Assembly: GCA_030528325.1 (NCBI GenBank)
Contig: JAUMZD010000016.1
Span: forward strand, 1 to 64,000
Source of the DNA: Lautropia sp.
GTDB lineage: Bacteria > Pseudomonadota > Gammaproteobacteria > Burkholderiales > Burkholderiaceae_E
Direction: 5' to 3'
DNA: 64,000 bases
The translations under genes and the position numbers were made by a program. Within the stretch, counting starts at the first letter, position 1, and each line of letters begins with the position of its first letter. Below the pieces are notes generated by a model, which ran no database searches, was not told the origin of the DNA, and was given only the letters and a program-made list of their open reading frames with translations. Of this stretch, positions 4,808 through 54,197 are shown piece after piece.

Positions 4808-5527
4808 TCAGGTGTCAGGTGATAAAGGCGTTGCCATGCCGGAGGCACGGCGAGGGTCTGAGACAAGGGCCCGCGTAATGCAATCGCTCAGTTCAGGATC
4901 CATCTGCATCCGTTCAAGGCACTGTTTCAGCCAGTTGAGGTCGCGGATCATGCCGCAGGCATCGTGATAGGCTCGGGCGACATGCTGGCCGTAGGCTGAT
5001 TCGGCTTTTTCCCATGCCTGCGAAGGAATCTCTCCCCAGTGGGCGATCATCATGGCCAGGTCGATGATGTCCCGGTTCAATGTGGATCGATCCTGACCGC
5101 GATCGGCATTGGCCAGCAGCTTTTCAGCGTACATGTCTGCCCTGCAGAGCACCGGCACGCTGAGAACCTCATCAACGCTGCCTCCGATTCTGATTCTCCC
5201 TTCGTTGACGATCTCAAGCTTGATCGGAACGCCATCGATATCGATGACGGTGCGGATGCCATAGCGATCGGCCCGGATCTCGCGTCGGTATGACAGCGGG
5301 CTTTTGAGCAGGCGCCCGAGGCTTTGCTGGGTGATGGTGTTTCTCAGCAATCGGTAGCCTTCGGTCGACGCACACAGAAAATCGATATCGCGTGATTCCC
5401 TGTACTCCGACAGGGCCATGACGATGGCGGTCCCGCCGCCAAAATAGCAGTCCGCTTCCTGAAGAAAGGCCGTGTCGAAGGCAGCCAGCACACGAGCAAT
5501 GCGTTGGTGATGGAGTCTTTCAAACAT
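4808..5527 (-). CDS. Nucleotidyltransferase of the AbiEii/DUF1814 family (type IV TA-like toxin)
   Basis: YFGGGTAIVMALSEYRESRDIDFL matches the Pol-beta-type hG[GS]...DhD signature. Its start overlaps the stop of the upstream small gene by 8 nt. Confidence 0.65.
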   Translation of the reverse strand: MFERLHHQRIARVLAAFDTAFLQEADCYFGGGTAIVMALSEYRESRDIDFLCASTEGYRLLRNTITQQSLGRLLKSPLSYRREIRADRYGIRTVIDIDGVPIKLEIVNEGRIRIGGSVDEVLSVPVLCRADMYAEKLLANADRGQDRSTLNRDIIDLAMMIAHWGEIPSQAWEKAESAYGQHVARAYHDACGMIRDLNWLKQCLERMQMDPELSDCITRALVSDPRRASGMATPLSPDT

Positions 5528-6610: not shown

Positions 6611-8359
6611 TCACCCCTGCAGCGCCTGAATCTCCCGCCATCCCAGCCCGAACTTTCGTAGGTACTTGCGCAGGCGGTCGGTGTCGTTGACCGCGCTGCG
6701 CTGGGTGCGGGACTGGTCGAAGAGGGTTCGGCCAGCTTCGGCCAGGCTCCGGCTTTGCCGGCAGGTGGCGATGACGGCTTCCAGTTGCAGGCGGTCGAAG
6801 CGGTCGAGTCCCGCCAGTGTCCCGGCGGGCAGCAGCTGTTCCAGCAGCGCGGGGGCTGGCAGGTTGTCGGCTTTTGCGCTGGCGGGTTGTGCCTCACGCC
6901 GGGGGGAGGGGGTGAGCGGGGCCGTTTCTGTCATGTCCTGCCACAGCCATTGCAGCCGGGCGATCTCGGCTTCGACCAGATCCGTGGTGATGCGTCCGCC
7001 TTCGGCGAGCGTGGCCAATCGGGTGATACTGGCCGACAGGTCGCGGAAGTTGCCCCGCCAGGGGGCATCAGGGCTCTGGGCGAACTGCAGGTAACGGGTT
7101 TTGGCCTCACGATTGAAGTGAGCGGCCTTGCCGCCTTCGGTGGGCATTCGGGCCAGCAGGTGGTCGATGTTGGGCTCCAGATCTTCGGGGCGTTCGGCCA
7201 GCCCGGGCAGGTGCCAGCTCCAGAGATTGATGCGGGCGAAGAGATCTTCGCGGAAGCGCCCGGCGGCCACTTCATGGCGCAGGTCGCGGTTGGTGCCGGC
7301 CATCAGCTGGAAATCGCTGTGCACCTCATGATCACTGCCCATCGGCAGAAAGCGTTTTTCCTCGACGGCCTTCAGCAGCATGGCCTGCTCGTCCTGACCC
7401 AGTTCGGCGATCTCGTCCAGAAACAGCACGCCCTGATGAGCGCTGCGAAGCAGTCCGGCCCGTTCGCTGGCTGCACCGGTGAAGGCGCCTCGTTTGTGAC
7501 CGAACAGAGTGCTGCTGGCGGTGTCACCGTGCAGGGTGGCACAGTTCACCTCGATGAAGTCGCCCTGCACCTGATGGCGGGCCTTTTTCAGCTCGTACAG
7601 CCGCCGGGCCAGGTGGGATTTGCCGGCACCGGTGGGCCCGGTCAGCAGGATCGGGGCTTTGGAGCGCACGGCCACCTGCTCGATCTCGTCGATCAGCCGG
7701 TTGAAGCGCGGGTTTCGGGTCGGAATGCCGTTCTTCAGATAATCCTGCGCCTGCTGGCGGGCGTGCTCGAAGCGCTGGGCCAGCCCGTCGTATCGGGACA
7801 GGTCGAGGTCGATCAGCGTGTAGGTGCCGACAGAGGCTGCACCTTTGGCCCGGGGGCTGGCGCTGTTGTCGTGATGCCCGTCGTGCCGGACTGGCTCGCG
7901 CGGCCCCTGGGCCAAGGGCAGCGATGGTCGCTGGCGGGGCGGCGAGCTTTGCAGCAGCACGCCCGGGATGAAACGGGCCTCCACCATCAGGAACAGACAG
8001 ATCTGTGCCACATGGGTGCCGGTCGTGATGTGTACCCAGTAGTCTTCGCGCTCGGTATCGAAGTGTTGGCGCTTCGCCCAGTCGTAGAGGTTGGCGTATA
8101 CCTCGCCGAAGTCCCAGGGGTCGGCCAGCGGCATCGGAATCGGATTCACCTGCGTGTGGGGCGACACCTCTGCGATGTCGGCCACGACCGTCTCCAGCAG
8201 TGCCTGGTACTTCGGTGCGTGGAACAGTTCCAGGCGGTCGATCGGATGAGGCTGCTGGACCATCGATAGCGTGGGGCGCCATTTCTTCCAGCGCCCGGCG
8301 CGCAGGCCGCTATCGAGCTGGGTACCGAGATAGCCGATGATGACGGTGCGTTTGTTCAT
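6611..8359 (-). CDS. rtcR: RtcR, sigma-54-dependent transcriptional activator with an N-terminal CARF domain
   Basis: MNKRTVIIGYLGTQLD... (CARF-like N-terminus), Walker A LLTGPTGAGKSHLAR, the GAFTGA motif of sigma-54 activators (KRGAFTGAASER), and a C-terminal HTH. Start taken at the ATG at 8359. Confidence 0.8.
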   Translation of the reverse strand: MNKRTVIIGYLGTQLDSGLRAGRWKKWRPTLSMVQQPHPIDRLELFHAPKYQALLETVVADIAEVSPHTQVNPIPMPLADPWDFGEVYANLYDWAKRQHFDTEREDYWVHITTGTHVAQICLFLMVEARFIPGVLLQSSPPRQRPSLPLAQGPREPVRHDGHHDNSASPRAKGAASVGTYTLIDLDLSRYDGLAQRFEHARQQAQDYLKNGIPTRNPRFNRLIDEIEQVAVRSKAPILLTGPTGAGKSHLARRLYELKKARHQVQGDFIEVNCATLHGDTASSTLFGHKRGAFTGAASERAGLLRSAHQGVLFLDEIAELGQDEQAMLLKAVEEKRFLPMGSDHEVHSDFQLMAGTNRDLRHEVAAGRFREDLFARINLWSWHLPGLAERPEDLEPNIDHLLARMPTEGGKAAHFNREAKTRYLQFAQSPDAPWRGNFRDLSASITRLATLAEGGRITTDLVEAEIARLQWLWQDMTETAPLTPSPRREAQPASAKADNLPAPALLEQLLPAGTLAGLDRFDRLQLEAVIATCRQSRSLAEAGRTLFDQSRTQRSAVNDTDRLRKYLRKFGLGWREIQALQG

Positions 8360-8401
8360 GCTGGCGGGTGCTTGGGGTTCTGGTCTTGATCCAGTCAACC
8401 A

Positions 8402-8626
8402 CTACTGGAACAGGTGCGCCCGATACTGGCCGGGTGTGACCTCGTCAAAACCCAGCGATGGCAGATCCTGGAAAATCCGACGGTTGATCTCTTTCAGGTG
8501 CCAGGCGTCGAATTTCCCTTTGACAGGATTCAGTCTGAGTTCGACAAGACGAGCCCATGTATGTCTGGCTTCAAGTACCTGTCGCCGCCCTGATGTCAGG
8601 GCCGGGTTTGGGTGTCGATCTTTCAC
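8402..8626 (-). pseudogene. 5' fragment of a Fic/Doc-family toxin gene (stops before the HPFx[DE]GNGR core)
   Basis: ...AWHLKEINRRIFQDLPSLGFDEVTPGQYRAHLFQ* resembles the Fic helix preceding the active-site motif. The ORF ends 43 nt from the rtcR start. Confidence 0.4.
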
Positions 8627-8955
8627 TCGGCGCCTTTGACGAATTGTGCGAGATCTATCTCACCCCGAATGAAGCGCTGGGCGTGTTCTTCATCAGTGGG
8701 ACTCAGCTGGAAGCCTTCCAGTGCGACCGAAGCGCGAGCGTAGTTGATGGCCTCCTCGCGTTCCCTGCGGTTGTGATGCCCGATGGGGACGGAGATCGTC
8801 TGAGGTGTTTTTCTGGCGGCGGAACGCTGGACGTATTCACGCATGAAGTCGCGCAAAACCTGTGCGGCAGGGCGGTGCTCAAGCTCAGCAGCCTCGGCGA
8901 ACTGCGCGCGCAAGTCTGCTTCTACCCGGAATGTCATGGTGACAGCTTTGTTCAT
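8623..8955 (-). CDS. FicA/VbhA-type antitoxin with an N-terminal RHH-like segment
   Basis: MNKAVTMTFRVEADLRAQFAEAAELEHRPAAQVLRDFMREYV (RHH) and the inhibitory S/TxxxE(G/N) motif in ASVALEGFQLSPTDEEHAQRFIRGEIDL. The start could also be the upstream ATG at 9030. Confidence 0.5.
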   Translation of the reverse strand: MNKAVTMTFRVEADLRAQFAEAAELEHRPAAQVLRDFMREYVQRSAARKTPQTISVPIGHHNRREREEAINYARASVALEGFQLSPTDEEHAQRFIRGEIDLAQFVKGAE

Positions 8956-9074
8956 GGGGACTTGTCTGTGTGTGATGGATAGGCGAACGTAATTACATTG
9001 TAATGAAAGTGTCATGACACCAGAAGGCATCCAGCTTTGGACTCAGGCCCCTGCTGCCTTCTCTTCATCACTGG

Positions 9075-9512: not shown

Positions 9513-9714
9513 CGGTGCCGGTGTCCATCGTCTTCATCGGTGAAGAACGATGTGGACGGTCGGCATGCCGCCAGGTAGTCGTGGGAGAGGTGGTGCGCAG
9601 GTTGGCGTGTGAGCGCATGGCCGGTTCAAGTCCGGCGGCACCACAGGTGGCTCTGCTCGGGTTGGAGCAACGTCCTGAAAAGACGTCTGGCAGGTTCGAT
9701 TCCTGTCTTTGTAC
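9513..9714 (+). ncRNA. Candidate Y-RNA-like / tRNA-like noncoding RNA (two tandem tRNA-mimic modules) downstream of the sigma-54 promoter
   Basis: Module 1 (9513..9643): a 7-bp acceptor-like stem cggtgcc/ggcacca, a long bulged helix (gtccatcgtcttc-atcggt-gaagaacgatgtggac) and a canonical T-arm gccgg-TTCAAGT-ccggc. Module 2 (9650..9706): D-arm GCTC-11nt-GAGC, an anticodon-like arm acgtc-CTGAAAA-gacgt, and T-arm gcagg-TTCGATT-cctgt, with no pairing acceptor stem. Confidence 0.3.
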
Positions 9715-10133: not shown

Positions 10134-11309
10134 ATGAAAACCTACGGCTGGAAAAGCTTTCAAGTCAGCAAGCATGAGCGCGCACTGCTGGTGCGCAATG
10201 GCGACGTGGAGCGTCTGCTGCCGGCTGGCCGGCATCGGGTGAAGGGCTGGGGGGATGTGCTGAGCGTCGCCCGCCTGTCGGGCTCTGAATCCGCGTTCGA
10301 TCATCCGCTGGCCGAACAGATTCTGGATGCCGGGCAGCGCGATGGCGCCGGCATGACGGATTGGTGGCAGCACCTGATCGCGGTGAGGCTGGCCGATGAC
10401 GAGGTGGGCCTGCTGATCGAGGACGATCTGCTGACGGCAGTCTTGCCGCCGGGCACGCGCCGGTTGTTCTGGAAAGCGCCGCGGCCGATTCGTGTCGAGA
10501 CCGTCTCGCTGTTGGCGGGTGTGCAGATGGCGCCGGCACTGGTGGCCAGGCTTCAACCGCTGATGGCCCGTGCCGGAACAGATGCCGTGGGCGGTGTCCT
10601 GCTGGTGCAGGTGCCGCAACACCATGCGGGTCTGCTGCGCGTCGATGGCGTATTGCAGCCGCTGCTGTCGACGGGCGTGCATGGATTCTGGCGCTTCGGC
10701 CCGGATGTCTCGATCGAGGTGGTGGATCTGCGCACGCAGACCACCGAGGTCGGCGGGCAGGAAATCCTGTCGCGGGACAAGGTGAGCCTGCGGCTGAACC
10801 TGCTCGCCGGCTGGCGCTATCAGGATGTGGCGCGGGCTTTTGCCCAATGGCCTCAGCCGGCGGATCAGGTGTATCGTGAGCTGCAATTCGCATTGCGTGC
10901 GGTGGTTGGCGCCCAGACGCTCGATGGGCTGCTGTCGGACAAGGCGCAGATGGATGCGGCGCTGATGGTCCAGGTGGGGCCGCGTCTGGCAGCACACGGT
11001 ATCGTTCTGGAGAGCGTCGGCGTGAAGGACATCATCCTGCCGGGCGAGATGCGTACGCTGCTGGCCAAGGTGGTCGAGGCCGAGAAAGCGGCGCAGGCCA
11101 ACCTGATCCGCCGACGGGAGGAAACCGCAGCCACGCGTTCACTCCTGAACACGGCCAAGGTGATGGAAGACAACCCGGTGGCGCTGCGGATGAAGGAACT
11201 GGAAACGCTGGAGCGGGTGGCCGAGCGCATCGACCGGATTTCGGTGGTCGGCGGGCTGGATCAGGTGCTGGATGGGCTGGTGAAGCTGCGTCCGGCGAAG
11301 AAGGGATGA
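10134..11309 (+). CDS. SPFH/band-7 (slipin-like) domain protein
   Basis: 391 aa with a central SPFH-like region and a C-terminal coiled-coil (EAEKAAQANLIRRREETAATR...ALRMKELETLERVAERIDRI). Confidence 0.65.
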   Translation: MKTYGWKSFQVSKHERALLVRNGDVERLLPAGRHRVKGWGDVLSVARLSGSESAFDHPLAEQILDAGQRDGAGMTDWWQHLIAVRLADDEVGLLIEDDLLTAVLPPGTRRLFWKAPRPIRVETVSLLAGVQMAPALVARLQPLMARAGTDAVGGVLLVQVPQHHAGLLRVDGVLQPLLSTGVHGFWRFGPDVSIEVVDLRTQTTEVGGQEILSRDKVSLRLNLLAGWRYQDVARAFAQWPQPADQVYRELQFALRAVVGAQTLDGLLSDKAQMDAALMVQVGPRLAAHGIVLESVGVKDIILPGEMRTLLAKVVEAEKAAQANLIRRREETAATRSLLNTAKVMEDNPVALRMKELETLERVAERIDRISVVGGLDQVLDGLVKLRPAKKG

Positions 11310-11466
11310 CACAGGCATGAATGAAGACCGGGGCCAGCGAGTGTGCTCCGCTTTGGCAGGTTGACAAAGCATGACGGTGAAAAGTATGAGCATGCGGGAA
11401 ATGGAAAACACTACGACAACGAAAAAAGCAACAGCAACAGCAATGGAGAGGGCAGTGGCGACGGCA

Positions 11467-12774
11467 ATGGAATCGGATACGGAAACAGCCACGACAACGA
11501 CGAGGACATCCGGGCAAGCATCGGGCCTGTCGACGGTATTTCCTCATGACGATTCGCTACCATATAATCAGATCACGAATGACGGAGCCGTCCCGGTGAA
11601 AATGTGGACGAAAGGCGTGCCGGTGGAGGATGAAGCCCGGCAGCAGCTGGAAAACGTCGCGCGGCTGCCGATCGTGTTCCGCCATGTGGCGGCCATGCCG
11701 GATGTGCATTACGGTATCGGGGCCACGGTGGGCTCCGTGATTCCCACCTTTCGGGCCATCATCCCGGCGGCCGTGGGGGTGGATATCGGTTGCGGGATGA
11801 TCGCCTGCAAGACGACGTTGCGCGCAGCCGATCTGCCTGACAATCTTGGCCCGTTGCGGGCTGCGATCGAGCAGGCCGTGCCGCATGGTATCTCGCCACG
11901 GCGTGCCGGGCGGGACAAGGGGTCGTGGGAAACGCCACCGCCAGAGACCGATGCGGCCTGGGCCGGGCTGGTGGATGAGTTCCGGCAGATCTGTGAAAAA
12001 TATCCCCGCCTGGAGAAGACCAACAACTACACGCAGCTGGGTACGCTGGGTACCGGCAACCATTTCATCGAGATCTGTCTGGATCAGGATGGGGTGGTCT
12101 GGATCATGCTGCACAGCGGTTCCCGCGGGGTGGGTAATGCCATCGGCACGCATTTCATCGAACTGGCGAAGCAGGATGCCGAGCAGCATCAGCGAAACCT
12201 GCCGGACAGGGATCTGGCCTATTTCGAGGAAGGCAGCCGTTATTTCGGGGATTATGTGAAGGCGGTGGGCTGGGCGCAGCGCTTTGCCCGGGCCAATCGG
12301 GAAGTGATGATGCAGCGGGTGATCGCTGCGATGAGAAGGATCATCACGAAGCCATTCCAGACACATCTGGAAGCGGTCAACTGTCATCACAACTACGTGC
12401 AGAAGGAACGGCATTTCGGTGAGGACGTGTTCGTGACCCGCAAGGGGGCCGTATCCGCGCGTGAAGGCGAGCTGGGTATCATCCCGGGCAGCATGGGGGC
12501 CCGCAGCTACATCGTGCGTGGGAAGGGCAATCCGGAGAGTTTCATGAGTTGCAGTCACGGTGCCGGGCGGCGGATGAGCCGCAACCAGGCGAAGAAGCGC
12601 TTCACGGTGGCCGACCAGATCCGGGCCACCGAAGGGGTGGAATGCCGCAAGGATGCCGAGGTGATCGATGAAATCCCGATGGCCTACAAGGACATCGACG
12701 CCGTGATGGCGGCACAGCGTGACCTCGTGGATGTGGTCTACACGCTGAAGCAGGTGGTGTGCGTGAAGGGATGA
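11467..12774 (+). CDS. rtcB: RtcB RNA ligase (3'-phosphate/5'-hydroxyl); true start uncertain
   Basis: AVPVKMWTKGVPVE, MPDVHYGIGATVGSVIPT, GTGNHFIEI, SMSCSHGAGRRMSR. The track ORF starts at 11371 with a low-complexity Thr/Ala-rich extension. The conserved RtcB sequence begins near 11560. Confidence 0.8.
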   Translation: MESDTETATTTTRTSGQASGLSTVFPHDDSLPYNQITNDGAVPVKMWTKGVPVEDEARQQLENVARLPIVFRHVAAMPDVHYGIGATVGSVIPTFRAIIPAAVGVDIGCGMIACKTTLRAADLPDNLGPLRAAIEQAVPHGISPRRAGRDKGSWETPPPETDAAWAGLVDEFRQICEKYPRLEKTNNYTQLGTLGTGNHFIEICLDQDGVVWIMLHSGSRGVGNAIGTHFIELAKQDAEQHQRNLPDRDLAYFEEGSRYFGDYVKAVGWAQRFARANREVMMQRVIAAMRRIITKPFQTHLEAVNCHHNYVQKERHFGEDVFVTRKGAVSAREGELGIIPGSMGARSYIVRGKGNPESFMSCSHGAGRRMSRNQAKKRFTVADQIRATEGVECRKDAEVIDEIPMAYKDIDAVMAAQRDLVDVVYTLKQVVCVKG

Positions 12775-12793
12775 CATCACGCTCAGGAGGATT

Positions 12794-12837
12794 GGGTGGC
12801 CGGTTTGCAGCCCGCGACTGTCCTGCCGCCCAAGCTC
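12794..12837 (+). repeat. Terminal-arm fragment of the MITE-like repeat family
   Basis: ggccggtttgcagcccgcgactgtcctgccgcccaagctc matches the arm of the element at 19014..19176. Confidence 0.5.
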
Positions 12838-12919
12838 TTCAGACGGCTCGGTGTTGATGGGGCGGCCGGGCCGTGCTACGATGCACATCGTTTGTAACAC
12901 GTCTTGCGAGGGCATCATC

Positions 12920-13207
12920 ATGGCCGACTCCACTTTTACCTTCCGGGTCGATGAAGCCTTGAAAGCGGAGTTTTCCACGGCCGCCAGGGCGCTTGACCGT
13001 AGCGGTGCGCAGCTGTTGCGTGACTTCATGCGGGAGTTCGTGCAGAAACAACAGGAGGCGGCTGCGCATGACGCCTGGTTCCGTCGTCAGGTTCAACGCG
13101 GTCTGGATTCGGCCGAGGCTGGCCGTCTGATTCCGGCGGCTGAGGTCGAGGCGAACTTTGCGGCCCGGCGGGCGGCCACGCGCCGTCGTCTTGAAGGTGT
13201 GGAGTGA
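12920..13207 (+). CDS. parD: ParD-like RHH antitoxin
   Basis: MADSTFTFRVDEALKAEFSTAARALDRSGAQLLRDFMREFV; 4-nt overlap with the downstream toxin gene. Confidence 0.6.
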   Translation: MADSTFTFRVDEALKAEFSTAARALDRSGAQLLRDFMREFVQKQQEAAAHDAWFRRQVQRGLDSAEAGRLIPAAEVEANFAARRAATRRRLEGVE

Positions 13208-13500
13208 TGCGTCTGTGCTGGACGCCTGAGGCCGTTCGAGACCGCGAGGACATCTATGCCCATGTCGAGGCAGACAATCCGATTGCAGCCCTGGCACTTG
13301 ATGAGCTGTTTTCGGAGAAGGCCCGGTATCTGACCGATCATCCCGGCCTGGGGCGGATGGGGCGGGTGGCCGGGACGCGGGAGCTGGTCGTTCATCGGAA
13401 CTACGTTCTGATCTATGACCTGGCAGGGGATCAGGTTCGCGTGTTGCGTGTGTTGCATGCGGCGCGTCAATGGCCGCCTGAGCATTCGTCGACGCCGTGA
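13204..13500 (+). CDS. parE: ParE/RelE-family toxin
   Basis: 98 aa: ...IYAHVEADNPIAALALDELFSEKARYLTDHPGLGR...RELVVHRNYVLIYDLAGDQVRVLRVLHAARQWP. Confidence 0.6.
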   Translation: MMRLCWTPEAVRDREDIYAHVEADNPIAALALDELFSEKARYLTDHPGLGRMGRVAGTRELVVHRNYVLIYDLAGDQVRVLRVLHAARQWPPEHSSTP

Positions 13501-13524
13501 GGCCGGGTGGAGAGGGCGGCTGGC

Positions 13525-13586
13525 CGTGATGGCCGCCCAGCGTGACCTCGTGGATGTGGTGTACACCCTGAAGCAGGTCGTGTGCA
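13525..13586 (+). repeat. Duplicated copy of the last ~62 nt of rtcB (original at 12701..12762)
   Basis: ccgtgatggc(c/g)gc(c/a)cagcgtgacctcgtggatgtggt(g/c)tacac(c/g)ctgaagcaggt(c/g)gtgtgc. The copy encodes AAQRDLVDVVYTLKQVVC. Confidence 0.7.
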
Positions 13587-13598
13587 TAACACGCTCTA
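13585..13598 (+). repeat. 14-bp direct repeat CATAACACGCTCTA (left copy) flanking the MoxR-vWA module
   Basis: Identical to 16666..16679. Confidence 0.6.
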
Positions 13599-13659
13599 AA
13601 GGGTGATTTACCCTGCAAGGGGTATTTCACCATTCAGCGAAAAGTTTTCCGGATGAACC

Positions 13660-14724
13660 ATGCAAGCCAGCATTTCCCTGTCTCCCTCCCAGCTTTCCGA
13701 GTTCCTGCTCAACGTTGCCACCGTGCGGCCGGTGTTCATCTGGGGGCCGCCGGGCATCGGCAAGTCGGCCCTGGTCACGCAGTTTGCCGAGAGTGTCGGT
13801 CTGCCGTGCGTCTCGTTGCTGGGCAGCCAGCTGGCGCCCGAAGACCTGATGGGCGTGCCGCAGATCCGTGATGGGGTGACGCGATTCTGCCCGCCGGCGA
13901 TGATCGCCCGTGAGGAGCCTTACTGCCTGTTTCTGGATGAGTTGAATGCCTGCTCGCAGGATGTACAGAAGGCCTTCTACAGCCTGATCCATGATCGCCG
14001 GGTGGGGGAATACACATTGCCCGAAGGCTCGATCGTGATCGGCGCCGGCAATCGGGCGCAGGATTCGGCCATCGTCAAGCCGATGTCGTCGGCGCTGATG
14101 AATCGCATGGTGCATGTTCATCTGCGGGTCTCGGCCAGCGAATGGCTGCAGTGGGCCACGTCGGCCGGCCTGCATCCACTGGTCATCGATTATCTGAGCC
14201 AGCGTCCCGATCATCTCTGGAGTCAGCCGCCCAGGCATGAAGAACCGTTCTCCACGCCACGTGCCTGGCACATGCTCAGTGATGCACTGCATGGGTTCGG
14301 GGAACAGCTGCCGCCCGTGATGATGGAGGCGCTGGCAGCAGGGTGTCTGACACCACAGCATGCTGCCCAGTTCCGGGCCTTTGGCAAGCTGGCCGGGGAT
14401 CGACACCGGCTCGATGCGATCATCAAGGGGGATGCCCGCTGGCCGCACGATCCGGCCGACCGCGACCTGCTGTATTTCCTGGTGCAGGCGTTCCGTGCCC
14501 GCCTGTTGAAGGTGCTGCCGGCCGAGAAGAATCTGGTCAGCGCCGAGGAGCAGGCTTTCGTTCACCGCAGCAAGGCCATGCTGAAAGAAATCGCGCAGAT
14601 CAGCCTGGAGATGGCGCAGATCGTGGTCGCGCAGGAGGCGGACGCGGCCTTGCCAGCCTGGTACATGGTGGAGGTCGTGCGTGACCTGCCCCGGCTGGTC
14701 GAGAAGAAAGCCGAGGCGAAGTGA
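13660..14724 (+). CDS. MoxR-family AAA+ ATPase (AAA_5 / CbbQ-NorQ-like)
   Basis: Walker A IWGPPGIGKSALV, Walker B CLFLDELN, and a sensor region. Translationally coupled (ATGA overlap) to the downstream vWA gene. Confidence 0.8.
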   Translation: MQASISLSPSQLSEFLLNVATVRPVFIWGPPGIGKSALVTQFAESVGLPCVSLLGSQLAPEDLMGVPQIRDGVTRFCPPAMIAREEPYCLFLDELNACSQDVQKAFYSLIHDRRVGEYTLPEGSIVIGAGNRAQDSAIVKPMSSALMNRMVHVHLRVSASEWLQWATSAGLHPLVIDYLSQRPDHLWSQPPRHEEPFSTPRAWHMLSDALHGFGEQLPPVMMEALAAGCLTPQHAAQFRAFGKLAGDRHRLDAIIKGDARWPHDPADRDLLYFLVQAFRARLLKVLPAEKNLVSAEEQAFVHRSKAMLKEIAQISLEMAQIVVAQEADAALPAWYMVEVVRDLPRLVEKKAEAK

Positions 14725-16595
14725 TGGGGCGAGCCGGTTCACGAGCCAGGGCGGCCACACCGGCCTCGCGGCATTACGAGGACGGGCTGCGTCTTTTGAG
14801 GACACATCCGGTTTTCGAGCCGCTGTATGAGCGCGTCCGCTGGGTGCGCAACACCTTCATCCATCGCAGCGCCCTCATCTGGCCGTCGGATGAATGGCCG
14901 GCCGATGCGTGGCTGTGGCTCGGCCGTGACGAGCATCTGTATGTTCACCCGAAGCGTCTGGCCGAGCCTGAGGTCTGGGCGCATGTGATGGCGCGTGGGC
15001 TGCTCTATCACGCGCTTGAACTGTGGCAGCCCGATCGCGGCAACTGGGAGGCCTGGAGTGCAGCCTGCGATGTGGTGACGGCCCGCTTCTTGCAGGGCAT
15101 CAAGTTCTACCGAAGCCCCGAGGGGATGACGCTGCCGGATGATCTGCCCGCCTGGGATGAGGCGCGCTGGTATCGGCAGTTCTGCGAGGATGGCGTGCCC
15201 GATTGGGCCGCAGCCCTGTCGCTGGCAGGCCGGACGAGGCCGACGATGCAGGCGCCGGGCGATTGGCCCGACAGGCGCGCCGATCCGTTTCGGGTCAGCT
15301 GGCCGGAGGCGTTTTCGGCGGGCATCGCCGAATCCGTCAGGCAGGCGGTGGAGGTCGTGGCCGGCCTGCGTTCTTCGTTAGGTAGCGAATTGATCGCTTC
15401 TTCGGGCCAGGGAGGGCGTGGCGAACTGCGAGCCCTCACCCGGCAGGCCAGGGACTGGTTCATCAGCAGTTTTCCGCTACTGGGCGCGATGGTCGCCTCT
15501 TTCGAGTTCGTCGAGGATGCCGGGTTGTGCCGGCGAGAAGATATCCTGGTGGCGGCGGTCGATGAAAGCCTGCGCACGATCTATCTGAATCCGGCCGTGG
15601 GGCTGGACGAGCAGGAAAGCCGTTTCGTCATTGCGCACGAAGTGCTGCATGTGGCACTCAGGCATCTGCCGCGCCGCCAGGGGCGTGACCCGTGGCTTTG
15701 GAACGTGGCCTGTGATTTCGTCATCAACGACTGGCTGATCCAGATGCAGGTCGGCACGCCGCCTGCCTTGGGGTTGTTGTTCGATGAGGGCTTGCGAGGC
15801 CTGTCGGCCGAAGAGATCTATGACCGGATCGCACGTGATCTGCGGCGCATGAGAAAACTGCGCACACTGGCCGGCGGGCAATGCGACATGCTGGAGCGCC
15901 GTCTTGATACCCGGCAGGTACCGTTCACCGATCTCGATGCCTTCTGCCGCGAGCAGCTTGGCAAGGGGTTGTTGCTGCATCAGCAGCAGGGGCGGGGTTA
16001 TCTGCCGGCCGGATTGATCGAGGAGATTAACGCGCTGCTGCAACCGCCCATCCCGTGGGAGGTGCAGCTGGCCCGATGGTTCGATCATCATTTTCCGCCG
16101 CTGGAAACCCGGCGCACCTATGCGCGATTGTCGCGGCGCCAGTCGGCCACACCCGACATTCCACGCCCCCATCTGGGGGTGGATGAAAGCCGGCGGGCGG
16201 GCCGAACCTTCGGCGTGGTGCTCGATTCTTCCGGCTCGATGTCCCGGCAGATGCTGGCACGCGCGCTGGGCGCCATCGCCAGCTATGCCGAGGCGAAGGA
16301 GGTCGCGGCGGTTCGAGTGGTGTTCTGCGATGCGCGACCCCATGATGCCGGTTATCTGGCGGCGCATGACATTGCCGGTCGGGTGCGGGTGCATGGGCGA
16401 GGTGGCACCGTGCTGCAACCGGGCATCGACCTGTTGCAGGATGCGGCGGATTTCCCGCCGGACGGGCCGATCCTGATCATCACCGATGGTCAGTGCGATG
16501 TGCTGAAGATCCGGCGCAGCCATGCTTTCCTGATGCCGCCGGGCGCAGGCTTGCCCTTCGTGCCACGGGGCGAGGTGTTCCGGATGACGGACTGA
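14721..16595 (+). CDS. vWA-domain protein with an N-terminal HExxH (DUF2201_N-like putative metallopeptidase) domain, partner of the MoxR ATPase
   Basis: FVIAHEVLHVALRHL (HExxH), a MIDAS-type vWA motif VVLDSSGSM, and ...ILIITDGQCD. Confidence 0.7.
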   Translation: MMGRAGSRARAATPASRHYEDGLRLLRTHPVFEPLYERVRWVRNTFIHRSALIWPSDEWPADAWLWLGRDEHLYVHPKRLAEPEVWAHVMARGLLYHALELWQPDRGNWEAWSAACDVVTARFLQGIKFYRSPEGMTLPDDLPAWDEARWYRQFCEDGVPDWAAALSLAGRTRPTMQAPGDWPDRRADPFRVSWPEAFSAGIAESVRQAVEVVAGLRSSLGSELIASSGQGGRGELRALTRQARDWFISSFPLLGAMVASFEFVEDAGLCRREDILVAAVDESLRTIYLNPAVGLDEQESRFVIAHEVLHVALRHLPRRQGRDPWLWNVACDFVINDWLIQMQVGTPPALGLLFDEGLRGLSAEEIYDRIARDLRRMRKLRTLAGGQCDMLERRLDTRQVPFTDLDAFCREQLGKGLLLHQQQGRGYLPAGLIEEINALLQPPIPWEVQLARWFDHHFPPLETRRTYARLSRRQSATPDIPRPHLGVDESRRAGRTFGVVLDSSGSMSRQMLARALGAIASYAEAKEVAAVRVVFCDARPHDAGYLAAHDIAGRVRVHGRGGTVLQPGIDLLQDAADFPPDGPILIITDGQCDVLKIRRSHAFLMPPGAGLPFVPRGEVFRMTD

Positions 16596-19013: not shown

Positions 19014-19268
19014 GGAGCTTGGGCGTCAGGAATCGCGAAGGCGAAAATCGGCCCCGCCGAGCACAGTTTGTGCCCGATTCGCCGCCCCATAGCCGGCGCT
19101 ATGGGGCAAGAAGCGGGTGCAAAATGGGCCGGCGCGGCCGGTTTGCAGCCCGCGACTTTCCTGCCGCCCAAGCTCCTGGGAGCCTGAGAACCGGGCACAA
19201 AACGTGATCGGCGGGACTGATTTTTCCGTCGCGATTTTTACCGCCTTTCTACCGCCCAAAGGCCTGGG
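19014..19268 (+). repeat. MITE-like element: full copy (19014..19176, imperfect terminal inverted repeats GGAGCTTGGGCG...CGCCCAAGCTCC, central hairpin ccccatagc-cggcg-ctatgggg) followed by a degenerate half copy (19177..19268)
   Basis: Homologous copies or fragments at 12794, 21093, 25845, 39610 and 41764. Confidence 0.6.
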
Positions 19269-20436: not shown

Positions 20437-21093
20437 ATGAAATACGCAGTGATCGGTGCAACAGGTTATGTGGGGCGTGCCGTCGTGGCTGAACTGGCCC
20501 GCCGTGGGCATCAGGTGGTGGCGTTTGTCCGTGATACCAGCAAGCCGCTGGACGGTGACGGTGTGCAGATGGAGGCGCTGGATGTGAGCAACCCTGTTTT
20601 TGCCGAGCGCCTGAAAGGCTTCGATGCCGTTGTCAGCGCCTTCAATCCCGGCTGGTCCAACCCCGACATCGCCGCAGACTTCACGCGCGGTTACGATGCC
20701 ATCCTGAGCACCGCCAGAGCGGCCGCCGTGCCTTATCTGCTGGTGGTGGGGGGCGCTGGCAGCCTGTACGTGGCACCGGGTGTGCAGCTGGTCGACACAC
20801 CGGATTTCCCGAAGGAGATCCACGCCGGAGCGGATGCGGCCCGCAAGCTGCTCGACACCCTCAGGCAGCAGCCGGATCTGAACTGGGCGATGGTGTCGCC
20901 GCCGGCTCTGCTGGGCGTGACTGGCGGGTACAGCGAGGCGCGCACCGGCCAGTATCGCCTGGGCAAGGACGAGCTGCTGATGGCTGGCGATGCACCGGCC
21001 GGCATCAGCGTGGCCGACCTGGCCATCGCCATCGCAGACGATGTCGAGAAGAAGGCGCACTTGCGTCAGCGCTTCACCGTGGCCAGTGCCTGA
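20437..21093 (+). CDS. NAD(P)-binding oxidoreductase (NmrA/atypical SDR-like)
   Basis: AAGGAAG RBS; MKYAVIGATGYVGRAVVAELARRGHQVVAFVRD has a Rossmann GxxGxxG. Confidence 0.6.
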   Translation: MKYAVIGATGYVGRAVVAELARRGHQVVAFVRDTSKPLDGDGVQMEALDVSNPVFAERLKGFDAVVSAFNPGWSNPDIAADFTRGYDAILSTARAAAVPYLLVVGGAGSLYVAPGVQLVDTPDFPKEIHAGADAARKLLDTLRQQPDLNWAMVSPPALLGVTGGYSEARTGQYRLGKDELLMAGDAPAGISVADLAIAIADDVEKKAHLRQRFTVASA

Positions 21094-21156
21094 GGAGTTT
21101 GGCCGACAGGAAAGTCGAGGGCTGCAAACCGGCCGCGCCGGCCCGTTTTGCACCCG
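21093..21156 (+). repeat. Solo terminal arm of the MITE-like family
   Basis: ggagtttggccgacaggaaagtcgagggctgcaaaccggccgcgccggcccgttttgcacccgc. Confidence 0.5.
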
Positions 21157-22484: not shown

Positions 22485-22679
22485 GATGCTGTCTCACGAT
22501 GATCAGAGAAGTTGGGCTGAGGGGGTTCAAGATACTCAGAACGGGAAGTTGGTGATTGGGGGGCTTCCGAAGAAGCCGTGATGGGAATGAGTGAGCGTTC
22601 GGATCGGTGGACGTCCTGTGTCGTTCAGCACGGTGATCCATGGTCACTGAGGAGCTTGGGCGGCAGGCGAATGCTGCGT

Positions 22680-41763: not shown

Positions 41764-41863
41764 GCGGCAGGAGTCACGACGGCGAAAACCGGCCCCGCCG
41801 GGCACAAAAAATGGGCCGGCGCGGCCGGTTTGCAGCCCGCGACTTTCCTGCTGCCCAGGCTCC
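41764..41863 (+). repeat. MITE-like element, internally deleted copy
   Basis: gcggcaggagtcacgacggcgaaaaccggccccgccgggcacaaaaaatgggccggcgcggccggtttgcagcccgcgactttcctgctgcccaggctcc. Confidence 0.55.
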
Positions 41864-42003: not shown

Positions 42004-45000
42004 TCAGTGGCGCGTGCGGCTCACCGCCTGGCTGGCCGCATCCGTGCCCTGATGCAGCGGCCGTGCCGGCACGCCGCGCTTGCTCTCGAAGGAGAGGGCG
42101 GGCTGGCCGGTTTCCGTCTGCACGCTGGTGTTCTCACCCTGGGCCTGACGGGCCTTGACCTGCTCGATCACGGTGTTCGAGCAGCTGCCCTCGATGAAGT
42201 CGGCCCGGTGCAGCATGCCTTTCTTCGCGTCGATGAACAGGCTCTGGGCATCGCCTGCGCTCTGGGCGCTGCTGGTCACGAGCCGGCTCCTGCGGGGCAG
42301 GGTGCGGCCGTCGATCTTCAGCACATGGGTGCGTGGGCGCAGACCGCAGTGGCTGTACTTGCCGTGCGCATCCGTCACCATCCAGGTGCCGTTCTGCAGG
42401 TACAGGCGCACACCGGGGATGCCGAGTTCCTCGACATCCTTTTTGGCGTTGCCGTTGCAGTCGACGAAGACCTGACCGGCCACGCAGGCTTCCTCGCTGA
42501 AGATGCCGGCACGAACCTGCACCTTCCAGCGCGACTCGTTCGAGCAGGTCGAGGTGCCGGCCCCGTTGGGGGTCAGACATTCGACGTGCACGCGGTTCGT
42601 GCCATCGCCTTCCAGAGAGCCGACGCCCAGGCGCACGCGGTAGGTGATGATGACATCACCAGGCTGGTGCTGGCCGGGGGCCTTCAGGGACGGACTGCCC
42701 GAACCCTGCCCGTGAGAGGTGAAGTTGCCCGTGTGGAGGCTGCCGGTGCGGTTCCGTCCGTTCGTCGCACCCGGCTTTGCGGCAGCCGTTGCGTCTGTCC
42801 CGGTGCCCTCGATCCGGTCGAGCGTGAGCCGCAGTTCGCGCATGCCCTGTTGCCGGATCTCGACCAGTTGAGCCCCCTGCACGCGCACCGAGCCGGGCTC
42901 GAGCCGGAAGCCGGGCGGCAGCCGGTCGACGACCACCGGCGAGATGGCCGGGCCGGTGCCCTGGTTGCGGATGCGCAGCTGGTAGGTCACTAGATCCCCC
43001 AGCTCGGCGGCTTGGGTGTTGCCCCGTTTTTCGATCGTCAGGCGGGCTTCATCGGCGGGCACCGGGGTGTCGATACAGGCTTGGCTCGTCAGCGGAGCGG
43101 CATCGGGCGTGTCTGCCGAGTGGTTGCGCAGGCTGAGGCGGTTGAAGAGGCCCTTGCCTTCGGCGGCCTCGGTGCTTGCGCAGCGGTTGTTGGCCGTGCT
43201 GCTGCCGTAGGGCACGCGGATCTGGAAATCCATCAGGTAGAGATCCTCGGCGCCGATGGCAAGTGGCTGCTGCTCGGCCAGTGCCCAGCTGCCATCGTTG
43301 GCGGCGGTCACCGACAGGGGGCGGTCGTTCTTCAGGATGCGGGTGCCGATGATCTTCACGTCGGGGTCGAAGGCCGGGGTGTCGATCAGGGAATACAGGC
43401 CCGCGGCACCGGCCTCGTGCTTGACGCTCACGCGGTACTGTACCTGATAGTCACTGGGGGTTCCCGGTACCGGTTGAGGTTCGCCCACGACTTCCTTGAC
43501 CGCCTTCAGTGTGGCGGGAATGTCCTTCAGCTCGATGTGGCAGATGACGTTCTGATGATCGTGCAGCGTCAGCAGATCGTCTTCGAGTGTGCCTTCGGAG
43601 CAGACCCATTTGCCGGTGAGATAGCCTGGTAGTGAAGGCTTTTCCAGCCGGTAGGTACCCGGACGAACCGGGGCGACGGTGACGGGGCGCGTGCCGGTGA
43701 TGCCACTGATGGCGTGGTCGGGCCCCTGTGCACCCACCGTGGTGTCACGCGAGGTAGCGGTGCCGCCGTGGCTGTTGAGCACATCGAGCACGAGCGTCAG
43801 GCTGATGGGCTGGTCGGTGTTGCTGATCGTGCAGGTGGCGTGCTCTCCCTGGGCGAGGCTCAGCTGATGGCCGTCCAGGGTGCCGGCGTCGCACTCCCAG
43901 ACACTGGCCACATACTTGGGCAGCTCATCCTGCCGGAGCGCATAGGTGCCGGGCAGGACGGAAACACCCGTCACGGAGGCCTGCCCCGTGGTGCCAGACA
44001 TCGGGGTGGGGCCGTCGGCGTGCAGGACGAAGTGCTGGGGCGTGGCCTTGCCACCATGGCTGTTGGTCACGGTGGTGGTGAGCGTCAGACGGGCAGGCTC
44101 ATCATCGTAATGGATGGCGCAGACCGCATCGTCATCATGGCCCAGGTTCAGCGTGTACGGGGCAGGCGCTGCGCCGACCTCGGATTCTCCTGGTGTCGAG
44201 GCGTTGCTGGCTGCACCGTGCGGAACGGGTTGGCCGTTGACCGTGCACTGCCATGAACCCGCGCGATAGCCGGGCAGTGGCGTGGCGTTCAGCACATAGG
44301 GGCCCGTCGGCACCTGGATCAGCGTGACGGAGGGGGTACCGCTCGAGCCGTTCAGGGTGGAATCGCCCTGGCCGTTTCGGGCAGCGCTCAGCTGGATGTC
44401 CGAGACCGAACGCTGGCCACCATGGTCATTCGTCAAGGTGCTGACCAGTGTCAGACGTGGCGTGAGCCGGCTTTCGGTGAAGTGATAGCCCGTGGCCATG
44501 TCGCCGGTGCCGAGCGTGATCTGGGCAATGCTGCGGCCATCGGCCGAGACCTGTCCACCGGCGCTGCCGGCATGTGTCTTGCCCGGTTGCTTCGTCACCT
44601 CACTGACACGGGAAAGCGTGTAGGTGCCATCGAGCAGGCCGCCGAATGTCGTCAGCGGTGTGCCGCTGCAGTCTTCGCTGGTGTAGATCTGATGCTTCTG
44701 ATCCGGGGTGAAGGCAAAGTGGCCGTGCTCGTCGGTATGACGGGAGAGCGTGACGGGCTGCCCCTTGCTGTTGGTGCCGCTCAGGCGCACACACTGGCCG
44801 GGCAGGGCCGTGTCCTCGGTGTCGAAGACATTGTCCTGGGTGCCGTCCACGAAGACCCGCCCGGACAGGCCGCTCATCTGACGGACGATCCTGACGTGCA
44901 GGTCCGACTGGGATTCGACATACAGCAGCGGACTGCTCTCGTCAGGCGGGCGCGTGTCGACGTGATTGGCAAAGATGTTGCCATCATGCGACTTGAGCGG

Positions 45001-48000
45001 GTCGGATTGCAACGAGACTTTCACCTCATAAGGGATATTGGCCTGCAACAGACGCAGCGAGGGGCTGATACGGATGGCCGTGCTCTCACCGATGGCGGCG
45101 GGGCAGCCCTCCGTGCCGAATTCGCTCGCCAGACACCACCGGGTGCTCCCACCTGTCAGCGCATTGCTGGCGTCACGCGGGTCGTTGTGAATGTCCTTCG
45201 GGTTGCGGTTCGTGTAGTAGATCTTGGCCGTGGCATCCCGTGCGGGCGGGGTGATGGACACCAGCTGATAGGCGCCTGGCTCGAAAGAGGAGGCCGGGTG
45301 ACGTGCCGTGAACGACAGGGCCGGGCGTGATTCTCCATCTCCCACGAAAGGCAGCACATCGATCATGTCCGGCACGTTCGGTGCGCTGATTTCCTGCCCC
45401 ATGGATACGAAGGTCAGCGTGTAGTCGAAAGGATCCCCGGGTTCGATCCGTGTGCGGGAGGTGCTTTTTTCCAGCAGAAAACCCGGAGGGGTCTGCACGG
45501 TGGTGTTTTTGTACGCCCCTTTCTCGCAGACCACTTCCTGATTGTCGGTCAGACGTGTCATCACCCAGGTCTGGCTGCCGGCATGATATCGGCAGTCGCC
45601 TTCGTAGTCGTTGGCACCGCCGCTGATGGCAACCAGGTTCCTGACCTGCGAACCGTTGATGAGATGGTTGCTCAGGCGTGCCCGGAAAGTGATGGGGGGC
45701 AGTTTGGCGCCCTCGTCGCCATCGTGACCGAAATGCGGCAACTGGTCCGGGAAAGTCCAGGTCAGCGTCGTCATGCCGGTGTCGGGGGTGTTTTCCTGCA
45801 CGACGGGTTCCATCGGCTGGCCGCCGACGGTGGCGGTGCCTTCGAGGTAATAGGTGCCCTTGGGCAGCAGGTCCGTCACGGTGACCGTGTCGCGTAGCTG
45901 CGGATAGAGGGTGCTGTGGCGGGGCACGATCTCATAGGTCAGCACGCTGCCGGCCGGTACCGGCGTCTTCTCGTCGTTGGCCGCGGCTGGTTCGATGATC
46001 GTCTTGCTCACGCGTGACACCGTGCGCGTCGGGATCACCATCAGGTGGTCACGTTGTTTCGTGACATCCATCGGAAAGGAGGTGGAGGTGATTTCGGCGC
46101 GGTTCCTGACGATGGTGCCGTCGGGAATCTCATCACCGGCCCGCCGGGTGGCCGGGCTTGGCGACAAAACCTCGATCGTGCTGCCCCAGGTTCGTCTCAT
46201 GACCAGGCCGGGGATGTTCAGTACGGCAATGCCCTGTGGGTTGAGGCGATTCAGCTGGGCGCGCACATAGACCAGCTTGCCGGCTTCCTCGGCCTTTTGA
46301 GCCGTATCGAACCACTGGATGTCGGGGTTCTGGCAACTGGCCGATGAATACGCCGAGCTGCCATGAGACGAATACTGGCCGATGACTTCGTAAGGCGACC
46401 GCGAGGTGTCGGTCGATGCAAAGTAGGGGGAAGTGCCAGCGGGTGGGACACCATAGCTGTATTTGATGACGGCTTTCGGATCTTTCAGGTAGCCAGGCAG
46501 GATGCTTGCGGACAACCTGTTCACGTCGACGTCGAAAGCACTCCGGTCGAGAATGTCGCAAAGCAGCACCTCACTGATCTGCTGCGTCCCCGTGTTCGAA
46601 AATCGCAGGATGGATCGTACCGACTGCGTGGGCGCGATGTGATTGACGATTTCGTCACTCAGAATGGCAGGGTCTTTCGGGGCGTGTAGCGGTGCGGTGA
46701 CACCCGTGTCGGGAACGAAGGCTTTCTGGGCTTCTCCCTTGCCTTGTGCCTTGATGTCGTGAGAGGTCACGTGACGGTCGTGTTCAAGGTTGGGCTTCGG
46801 TTGCGCGATGGCCTGCCCGCTGATCGAGGTTCCCTGAATCTGTGCGAAGCGGAAAGGATGGTTCACCACGACGTTGTCCGGGTAGGTGGCCAGCTCCGTC
46901 CATAGCACCAGCACCTTGTTTGCCACCCAGAACTCATCAGCCGGCAGGGGCGAATTGGTACGTGACAATTGGGTGGGATAGTGCGCCAGCCGGGTGTCGA
47001 CACCCGACAGCGAGATCGTCACGGCGTTTCGTGTGGCGCCGGGCTTCACCTGGCAGTCCCCGCCATTGGCCACGGTATATTTATCCGGTGCCGGCGATGG
47101 GCCATGGTCGGTGACGCGGTTATAGGTGTTGACGCGACCGCCGCCGAACAGACCAGGGGCATCCTGGGCGAAATTCCGGCCGCTGCCGCAGCCATCGGCA
47201 TAGCTGCCTTTCGCATCAGGATCCCAATCCAGGACACGCACCGAATCGGGATAGCCGCTGATGTCCAGCGTGATCTCGACGGGCTGGTTGGGGTCGAGTT
47301 GCTCGACGCCTTTTTTCCCGCCCTTGTCCGGGTTCTGCGCAAAGAGACCGATCATCGGTCGGTGGAACACCCCGTCCTTCCGCTCGGGGCCCGGGCCCGG
47401 GCCGTTTTCCACCTGAACACCATAGGCAGCAGGCACGCCGTTGTGGCTCATCTGGACCTTCACGTCATAGAAGGGGGCTGCCGTGACTTTCAGGGCATCG
47501 GGCAATGTCGCAGGTGCCTTGCCTGCTGGCACCTTGTCGGACTTCACGTCGATGGCAGGGGTTTCAAACGTGGTGTCGTGACGGACGTCGCCCCGAACCG
47601 TTGCATTGAAAACCAGTGACCGGGTGCCGGAGCCCGTGAAGTCCTCCATCCTGCAGGTGATGATCTGTCCGTCGGCCGACAGCTGCGAGCCAGGCTGGCG
47701 ACACTGTGTCGGCATCGACCAGTCGGCAATGGGTTTGCCGTTTACCTGAGGCAGGGTCAGCTTGATGACGGGATTCGTGTCGGCACCGTTGGTGCTGACG
47801 GCCACCTCGTAACCCACTGCGTCATGGGTGCGCACGATGCCGTTCTTGGCGCCGGCATCGAAGCCCGGGCCTGTCCGGGTCGTGTTGAAGGTGGGAGTGC
47901 CATCATACTGAACCGAGTAGGTCACCTGATTGATCATGGCCTGGGCCGGCAGGCTCCAGCAGGTGGCGGCCAGCAATGGCAGCACCCAGCGGACAGGCTT

Positions 48001-54191: not shown

Positions 54192-54197
54192 GGCGCA

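Follow-up and report, generated by a model that had tools for sequence, protein, structure and literature searches.

A toxin-antitoxin cassette between two copies of the rtcB 3' end in Lautropia sp.

How does a toxin-antitoxin (TA) pair come to lie between two copies of the end of a host gene? This question is raised by the 3' end of rtcB, the gene for an RNA ligase, in Lautropia sp. (Burkholderiales; assembly GCA_030528325.1, contig JAUMZD010000016.1, positions 1 to 64,000; this 64-kb stretch is denoted the window, and all coordinates refer to it). A preliminary description of this DNA read the locus as a parDE cassette that had inserted, site-specifically or through microhomology, into the end of rtcB and had regenerated the open reading frame (ORF) by duplicating its tail. 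We found that the two tails are most likely two alleles of rtcB set side by side, one that came with the cassette and one that was resident, as suggested by the codon positions at which they differ. The locus as a whole is, with moderate confidence, the scar of a horizontal acquisition through one-ended homologous plus illegitimate recombination with DNA of a related strain. The features on which this reading depends are the following.

11371-12774, plus strand: rtcB (RNA ligase), intact; Pfam RtcB, 4.9e-131, full profile
12700-12762, plus strand: copy 1 of the tail, the functional rtcB 3' end (repeat search, ungapped comparison, and blastn)
12775-12919, plus strand: left arm of the insert, consisting of a spacer, a repetitive extragenic palindromic (REP)-like repeat (12798-12842), the palindrome ACGATGCACATCGT (12878-12891), and the motif TTGTAACAC (12892-12900)
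12920-13207, plus strand: gene for a ParD-like ribbon-helix-helix (RHH) antitoxin, 95 aa (weak family matches)
13207-13500, plus strand: gene for a ParE-type toxin, 97 aa (Pfam ParE_toxin)
13489-13500, plus strand: 12-nt exact match, TCGACGCCGTGA, to rtcB 12695-12706, formed by the last three codons and the stop of the toxin gene
13501-13522, plus strand: 22-nt filler from the toxin stop to copy 2, bounded by the 7-nt direct repeat GCCGTGA (direct reading)
13523-13585, plus strand: copy 2 of the tail, most likely what remains of a second rtcB allele, truncated so that rtcB sequence is missing upstream of it; aligns to the rtcB ends of L082 and L086, two relatives without the cassette (empty sites)
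13586-13606, plus strand: 12-nt block ATAACACGCTCT replacing GTG, then in-frame AAA GGG TGA (K G stop; alignment A2)
13607-13659, plus strand: native rtcB-AAA spacer, in which TTTTCCGGATGAAC matches TTTTCTGGATGAAC of the empty site L086
13660-14724, plus strand: AAA_5 (MoxR-like) ATPase gene, denoted AAA below (Pfam)

The tail repeat and its empty sites

Comparison of the region 12000-14500 with itself (repeat search and ungapped comparison) revealed one long direct repeat in all, 63 nt at 12700-12762 and 13523-13585, with 58 of 63 positions identical (92%) and an offset of 823 nt between the copies. The edges of the repeat are sharp on both sides in the ungapped comparison, and a stringent local alignment returned exactly 63 nt; when each copy was compared with the whole window using blastn, the other copy was the sole match (E = 2e-21). 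Both copies encode the peptide AVMAAQRDLVDVVYTLKQVVC, and a 23-nt core inside the repeat is free of mismatches. The preliminary description was thus right that the tail is repeated at both ends of the TA insert, with some corrections: it had placed the copies at 12701..12762 and 13525..13586 and estimated about 6 substitutions, where 5 are counted, and its duplication of the last 62 nt of rtcB is a real 3'-end repeat that is 63 nt long and stops 12 nt before the gene end, leaving the codons VKG* outside the contiguous repeat. Homology, with interruptions in copy 2, stretches over rtcB 12695-12774. Gapped extension of the repeat under permissive settings gave mostly noise, the K-G-stop excepted. 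The 823-nt unit bracketed by the tails holds the REP-like repeat and the ParD/ParE-type TA pair.

The window comes from a metagenome-assembled genome (MAG), and a contig that joins two co-occurring strains across repeats could place side by side tails that lie on separate molecules; the differences between the tails do look like those of strain alleles. An independent Logan contig (L081, run SRR24915846) is 100% identical to 12805-13764, so that the junction from toxin through copy 2 to AAA is not an artefact of one assembler, and a truncated rtcB tail beside the TA pair is real regardless. L081 breaks inside the REP-like repeat, at 12805, and the junction from rtcB through this repeat to the antitoxin accordingly rests on the MAG assembly and on synteny. 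Against a chimera, rtcB followed by AAA and DUF2201 is the conserved order in relatives, and a false join at the 63-nt repeat would have merged the tails, not spaced them 823 nt apart. An assembly artefact thus appears scarcely probable.

Closer Lautropia relatives were taken from protein-collection matches to RtcB, and their contigs were then compared. L082 (RtcB 95% identical) and L086 show the order SPFH - rtcB - 37-40 nt - AAA - DUF2201, with one tail and no cassette, and thus represent empty sites. This is the single tail that the preliminary description had predicted for relatives lacking parDE, and it bears out the insertion of a TA cassette at the end of rtcB. Of the 63 tail positions, L082 shares 54 with copy 1 and 54 with copy 2, and L086 shares 54 and 56, respectively. 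None of 80 species-representative genomes with an RtcB 73-85% identical carries the TA pair of the window or a second tail. The gap between rtcB and AAA is occupied differently in other relatives: L083 (7332-7998) and L084 (3343-3989) contain a MazE/PrlF antitoxin and a PIN toxin there, without any tail repeat, and Acidovorax soli (L010) and a Burkholderiales MAG (L011) contain a nucleotidyltransferase-like gene. The contexts of L168 and L169 added nothing further on this gap. Given these differing contents, the rtcB-AAA junction is variable among relatives, and TA pairs have been taken up there at least twice. Since PIN toxins are RNases, and RtcB mends RNA that has been cleaved, there could be a functional side to a PIN toxin lying beside rtcB.

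Alignment of the window with L082 and L086 (A2) bears on which of the two tails is foreign. Copy 2, AAAGGGTGA against the native AAGGGGTGA (K G stop), the end of the spacer, and the start codon of AAA are all in register with the empty sites; the sole disturbance between copy 2 and AAA is that ATAACACGCTCT takes the place of GTG and lengthens the stretch by a net 9 nt. By chance, an in-frame K-G-stop would follow copy 2 with a probability of about 6e-4. This register with the native rtcB end identifies copy 2 as the resident rtcB end, still where it originally lay; the intact gene ends with copy 1, which would make copy 1 the incoming tail. For annotation, the 63-aa ORF at 13415-13606 is better treated as a gene remnant than as a gene.

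The conserved core of the toxin ends with ...HAARQWPP (13479), and the remaining EHSSTP* lies in the part that varies within the family. A match to rtcB as long as TCGACGCCGTGA was reached in 1 of 5000 shuffles; the 12 nt at 13489-13500 are probably either the true start of the rtcB remnant or a microhomology used at the right junction. The 22-nt filler that follows has no counterpart in the empty sites. Taken together, the last toxin codons matching rtcB and the filler place the right joint at the very end of the toxin gene, with rtcB microhomology, and in this respect the microhomology-mediated insertion of the preliminary description agrees with the sequence of the junction.

Two alleles or one duplicated tail

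All 5 differences between the tails are synonymous and fall on third codon positions, and 4 of the 5 are G/C swaps; among random substitutions in these 63 nt, a share of about 25-29% would be synonymous. Orthologs behave in the same manner: the window rtcB is 10-18% divergent from Lautropia orthologs, with 71-81% of the differences at position 3 and many G/C swaps. The tail copies differ by 8%, compared with 10% for the whole rtcB against L082.

Metagenome contigs were scanned for the toxin family of the window, and the flanks of each TA pair were compared; two more independent groups of loci repeat the arrangement of the window. In L088-L091, an intact SapC gene is followed by the TA pair and then by a 358-nt SapC 3'-end fragment with its own stop, the two SapC copies being 85% identical; in L099/L100 and L096, the order is RecJ, the TA pair, and a 105-nt internal fragment of recJ. 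Mismatches concentrate in one codon phase at each of these loci (31 of 41 in L088, 19 of 23 in L099, and 7 of 9 in L096). Pooled over the window, L088, and L099, 55 of 69 mismatches lie in one codon phase, which rejects a model with one copy constrained and the other decaying neutrally (expected 0.57, p = 6e-5) and fits a model with both copies constrained (expected 0.80, p = 0.59). This pooled bias suggests that each remnant derives from another allele of its host gene and was not copied when the cassette inserted. The regeneration of the ORF end by duplication, as proposed in the preliminary description, therefore stands in part: a second tail does keep the rtcB frame intact, but literal duplication is not supported by differences that are all synonymous and by pooled cases in which they look like those between orthologs.

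Duplication at the site is nevertheless a known outcome of insertion for another kind of addiction-type gene pair. Restriction-modification (RM) gene complexes insert with long target duplication, by a mechanism that is unknown, leaving direct repeats of 46-423 bp, a one-copy empty site in a related genome, and no linked mobility gene (Nobusato et al. 2000; Furuta, Abe & Kobayashi 2010, PMC2853133). Applied to rtcB, this account would posit a long staggered break in the resident tail, gap filling that duplicates 63-80 nt, and later divergence of the copies. The locus shows the properties by which Furuta et al. 2010 (PMC2853133) recognized such insertions: an insert below 20 kb (the 823-nt unit), repeats above 30 bp (63 nt), one-copy empty sites, no mobility gene in the insert or the tested neighboring ORFs, and a repeat that is not multicopy, the 63-mer occurring only twice in the window. 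It also resembles the RM cases in that the repeats are far longer than transposon target duplications and that some of the RM repeats overlap a host-gene 3' end. Furthermore, the two tails are each other's closest relatives. They have in common three derived synonymous states (CGT GAC CTC) that are absent from other Lautropia alleles and make the tails sister sequences, as in-situ duplication also predicts; outgroups place 2 of the changes on copy 1 and 2-3 on copy 2, and the window tails alone, with five informative sites, count only mildly against in-situ duplication (p about 0.06).

Several features of the repeat speak against target duplication. A divergence of 8% has accumulated without a non-synonymous change, with the G/C third-position swaps typical of coding divergence, and neutral decay of one copy is rejected by the pooled homologous cases, whereas most RM repeats in the literature are near-identical, such as 44/46 and 417/423 (PMC2853133). 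The cargo differs as well, being a type II TA pair, and the copies in the window, at SapC, and at RecJ differ as orthologous alleles do. A later review assigns long target duplication to RM systems only (PMC3874152), and literature searches returned no report of this type of insertion for TA pairs. We consider a true insertion with target duplication unlikely.

Coding-type divergence would also result if a tandem paralog of rtcB had decayed, that is, if an array rtcB1 - TA - rtcB2 - AAA had lost all but the last 63+ nt of its second gene. No second rtcB or second tail occurs at this locus in the 80 species representatives or in the Lautropia-like relatives examined. A paralog would further require duplication, long coexistence, insertion of the TA pair between the copies, and near-complete deletion, where the juxtaposition of two alleles requires one event. 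This possibility appears very improbable.

How the cassette may have arrived

No recombinase, integrase, or transposase was detected in the insert or in the ORFs tested around it, which reach about 12 kb upstream and about 10 kb downstream. The neighboring ORFs tested encode RtcR, SPFH, AAA, DUF2201, ankyrin, NMO, a LysR regulator, an MFS transporter, a GMC oxidoreductase, AbiEii, VbhA, and a C39 peptidase, and several lack a Pfam match. The insert has no inverted repeats at its two ends. The TA units of the SapC, RecJ, and window groups are about 74-78% identical to one another or too diverged for a blastn match, and their surroundings vary: the remnants are 63, 105, and 358 nt long and either terminal or internal, the right arms of 22, 43, 189, and 437 nt show no similarity, and the cassette ends have nothing in common except a motif in the antitoxin promoter region, (T)TGTAACAC. 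Such varied remnants and unshared ends fit illegitimate joints, not att sites. With no recombinase found in the ORFs tested, no inverted repeats, no conserved ends, and no common target, the evidence disfavors site-specific integration as well as transposition and integron capture. The site-specific insertion envisaged in the preliminary description is thus not supported, the host genes being rtcB, SapC, and RecJ and a different TA pair occupying the same rtcB-AAA gap in L083 and L084 without a tail repeat.

The transposon, MITE, and integron-cassette readings were rejected. A transposon, insertion sequence (IS), or miniature inverted-repeat transposable element (MITE) does not agree with the lack of terminal inverted repeats, with a flanking repeat of 63 nt and not 2-15 bp, and with the internal position of the REP-like repeat. 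For a site-specific element, no tyrosine or serine recombinase was seen in the insert or the tested neighboring ORFs, and neither the ends nor the targets (rtcB, SapC, and an internal RecJ fragment) are conserved. As for an integron cassette, the flanking repeat is rtcB coding sequence and not attC-like, and the tested ORFs include no integron integrase. The insert does share with the TA cassettes of chromosomal integrons a small, promoter-bearing unit flanked by repeats, and the related L156 and L149 units lie in an array with a 110-210-nt repeat; it differs from these cassettes in the nature of the flanking repeat, in the right arm of 22 nt, and in the missing integrase.

An island that once carried an integrase deserves separate mention. 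Islands that target tRNA and tmRNA genes, and SCCmec at orfX, insert in the 3' end of a gene and bring a replacement end with them. The window resembles them in the direct repeats of a gene 3' end, in the intact host gene, and in the silent differences, such as are expected when a replacement end is brought in. The two tails could then be attL and attR of an island of which all but the TA pair has been deleted, an idea to which the perfectly identical 23-nt core would lend itself and which accords with the known ability of TA pairs to stabilize islands. The insert and the tested neighboring ORFs yielded neither an integrase nor any trace of one, however, and the insert is only 823 nt long with a right arm of 22 nt only. 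Moreover, the ends and targets of this TA family are not conserved (rtcB, SapC, and RecJ differ, and one remnant is an internal gene fragment), and the other TA pair in the same gap has no repeat. A degraded island is quite improbable.

The reading that we favor, recombination with DNA of a related strain, would proceed from an ancestral Lautropia operon SPFH - rtcB - (about 40 nt) - AAA - DUF2201. Incoming DNA from a related strain would have carried the 3' part of that strain's rtcB with the ParD/ParE-type TA cassette behind it. On the left, homologous recombination would have taken place within or upstream of rtcB; on the right, an illegitimate joint would have formed inside the resident rtcB tail, with the microhomology TCGACGCCGTGA / GCCGTGA at the joint or close to it. 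The product would be an intact rtcB, with copy 1 derived from or continuous with the incoming DNA, the cassette after it, and finally copy 2, the resident tail that was displaced, just before AAA. A complete gene end in the incoming DNA, not regeneration by a recombinase, would have preserved the rtcB frame. Once in place, the TA pair would resist being lost: if the tails recombined and deleted it, post-segregational killing would follow, a stabilization expected from the known behavior of TA pairs. The donor and the exact recombination pathway are, as presented here, our reconstruction.

A process of this class, homology-facilitated illegitimate recombination, has been described for the uptake of foreign DNA by Acinetobacter and Streptococcus pneumoniae and would suffice to produce this locus; the outcome would be no different if a small circle with this segment were integrated by one crossover. 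The likeness consists in the one-sided rtcB anchor, the foreign TA pair attached to it, the second joint at a G+C-rich microhomology of 7-12 nt, and the lack of any need for an enzyme of the element. The window differs in that a partial gene repeat resulted instead of the more usual deletion, which would follow from a joint located upstream of the end of the anchor.

Several observations weigh against this reading, in addition to the sister relationship of the tails and the dependence of the left junction on the MAG assembly described above. The remnant has two small interruptions (22+7 nt; net +9 nt), and the junctions are less simple than one clean event would leave. The donor configuration, with the TA pair of the window after rtcB and no remnant, was not found, and toxins other than the identical one reach 81% identity at most. 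There is no convincing mosaic boundary that would mark the left crossover in SPFH-rtcB or in AAA-DUF2201; sliding-window identities, given with no significance test, show a weak change of nearest relative along rtcB, with L082 closest over the 5' part and L086 over the last ~400 nt. Finally, flanking repeats were found for 10 of 64 TA units, with a maximum of 26.5 bits in the mismatched-flank control, but displaced-segment controls of the same size on the same contigs were positive in 6 of 57 cases of mixed kinds: some were repeats between the cassettes of TA arrays, others were short exact repeats, and one was a pair of paralogous coding segments. An enrichment of flanking repeats in this TA family was therefore withdrawn as a claim, and the recurrence of the layout at SapC and RecJ was retained.

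The movement of chromosomal TA pairs that lack a linked mobility gene is poorly documented. The rtcB locus is a clean natural example, since the two junctions are present, two relatives have empty sites, and in others the gap has a different occupant; the footprint of TA insertion is clear but fairly ordinary, and its main value is that of a well-resolved example and a lead for a genome-wide test. If the allelic reading were general, truncated gene fragments beside TA pairs could serve to recognize horizontal acquisitions of such pairs and to date them, and long target duplications of RM systems could be read anew as ordinary recombination with allelic DNA. A bolder generalization, which we regard as rather doubtful, is that ParDE-type and perhaps other TA cassettes spread without recombinases on the ends of neighboring host genes, each leaving a truncated allelic fragment as a datable scar; this would be the TA counterpart of RM long target duplication, with the rtcB-AAA junction as a preferred landing site of toxins. 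If it were true, the RM duplications would also be juxtaposed alleles.

The TA pair, the Rtc operon, and their surroundings

The parD-parE pair named in the preliminary description is real. The toxin matches Pfam PF05016 ParE_toxin (1.1e-17, above the cut-off) and TIGR02385 (7.8e-12; 45.5 bits vs a cut-off of 27.9), its closest solved structures in PDB are all four ParE (5cw7, 5czf, 6x0a, and 5ceg), and it has all 38 invariant columns of the family alignment (A1). It is identical (100%) to P0001, a protein in the collection from a 68.9-kb contig of a Lautropia sp. MAG. The antitoxin has no Pfam match and a weak NCBIfam match to RelB/DinJ, below the cut-off, and its match in PDB is 6xrw_B, a CopG-family RHH protein (1.3e-4). 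The antitoxin stop overlaps the toxin start (TGATG), and of 80 loci examined for the toxin family, 73 have a homolog of the antitoxin next to the toxin. By these criteria, the pair is a predicted type II TA system of the ParDE type, with a toxin of the ParE/RelE fold and a coupled upstream RHH antitoxin gene, and it is presumably active. Like ParDE systems such as PaaA2-ParE2 of E. coli O157 (PDB 5cw7), it combines a ParE toxin with an RHH antitoxin gene that lies upstream and overlaps the toxin start; unlike them, its antitoxin is above threshold in no curated family.

The (T)TGTAACAC motif is conserved 20-30 nt upstream of the antitoxin start in the window, L088, L096, L099, and L155, in flanks that are otherwise unrelated. 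Together with the palindrome ACGATGCACATCGT of the window, this motif is probably the promoter/operator of the TA family. A promoter and terminator scan of the insert spacer found no sigma-70 promoter consensus and no terminator, the predicted fold of the spacer RNA is no better than that of shuffled sequence (z = -0.48), and a plasmid search with the spacer gave no match. What the preliminary description called a MITE fragment is a REP-like genome repeat of 40-45 nt. It belongs to an intergenic family with the core GGCCGGTTTGCAGCCCGCGACTKTCCTGCCGCCCAAGCTC that has four other copies in the window and was not found in about 50 kb of other Lautropia loci:

12798-12842: copy in the left arm of the insert
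19136-19175: second copy
41823-41862: third copy
21090-21134, minus strand: fourth copy
22647-22667, minus strand: fifth copy

Two side observations concern other loci of the same TA family. An IS66-family transposase gene (L088:5202-6884) lies about 800 nt downstream of the SapC remnant and could have contributed to the rearrangement there. In L156 (2648-3828) and L149, the TA family occurs in an array of small cassettes with a 110-210-nt repeat (GGTCAGGTCTTGCCTCTTGCCTCGA...) that includes a MazE-like gene; the array is either integron-like or a TA array of another kind. The repeats at L156/L149 and L155 show no codon-phase bias and were not retained as the same phenomenon, being probably intercassette or other repeats.

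RtcB, the product of the host gene, is 100% identical to P0121, a protein from a Lautropia sp. MAG, and its canonical C-terminus, ...QVVCVKG*, is the same in all 73 relatives with a recognized tail. The start at 11371 is that of the longest ORF, and the NCBI form has 390 aa and starts at 11602. The intervening 11371-11601 encodes a threonine/alanine-rich, low-complexity N-terminal extension of 77 aa; similarly long forms of RtcB are called in two relatives (454 and 462 aa), and alignment of this region between relatives is poor (identity 0.3-0.6). The remaining genes of the locus are the following.

6611-8398, minus strand: RtcR, upstream of rtcB
10134-11309: SPFH gene, upstream of rtcB
14721-16595, plus strand: DUF2201 metallopeptidase/VWA gene (Pfam)

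The presence of SPFH and RtcR upstream indicates a genuine Rtc RNA-repair locus, and AAA and DUF2201 are the genes resident downstream of rtcB in relatives, in the same order right after rtcB in L082 and L086. The 1.7-kb gap between RtcR and the SPFH-rtcB operon contains a slightly degenerate tRNA-like element at 9641-9713 (plus strand), which ARAGORN calls as tRNA-Phe (GAA) and which scores 27.4 bits with the Rfam tRNA model, under the 29-bit threshold, with two non-canonical pairs in the acceptor stem; an Rfam scan of the whole window reported tRNA-Leu only. YrlA RNAs of rsr-yrlBA-rtcBA operons contain tRNA-like modules, and the element may be a tRNA gene or a module of this type.

Further TA-type genes lie nearby. 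A second antitoxin-like ORF of 135 aa (8402-9030, minus strand) combines an RHH N-terminus resembling the ParD-like protein at 12920 with a VbhA antitoxin domain (Pfam, 3.6e-10), and the 74-aa ORF after it, with no Pfam match, is possibly a truncated Fic-type toxin. The gene at 4808-5527 (minus strand) encodes an AbiEii nucleotidyltransferase toxin (type IV TA / abortive infection). With the ParD/ParE pair, the AbiEii gene and the VbhA-type ORF bring the number of TA-type modules around the rtc locus to at least three in about 9 kb. At a distance from this cluster, 42004-60305 (minus strand) contains three tandem ORFs of about 2000 aa each, of which the middle one, with SpaA_2, SdrD_B, and DUF11 domains, encodes a surface-adhesin-like repeat protein.

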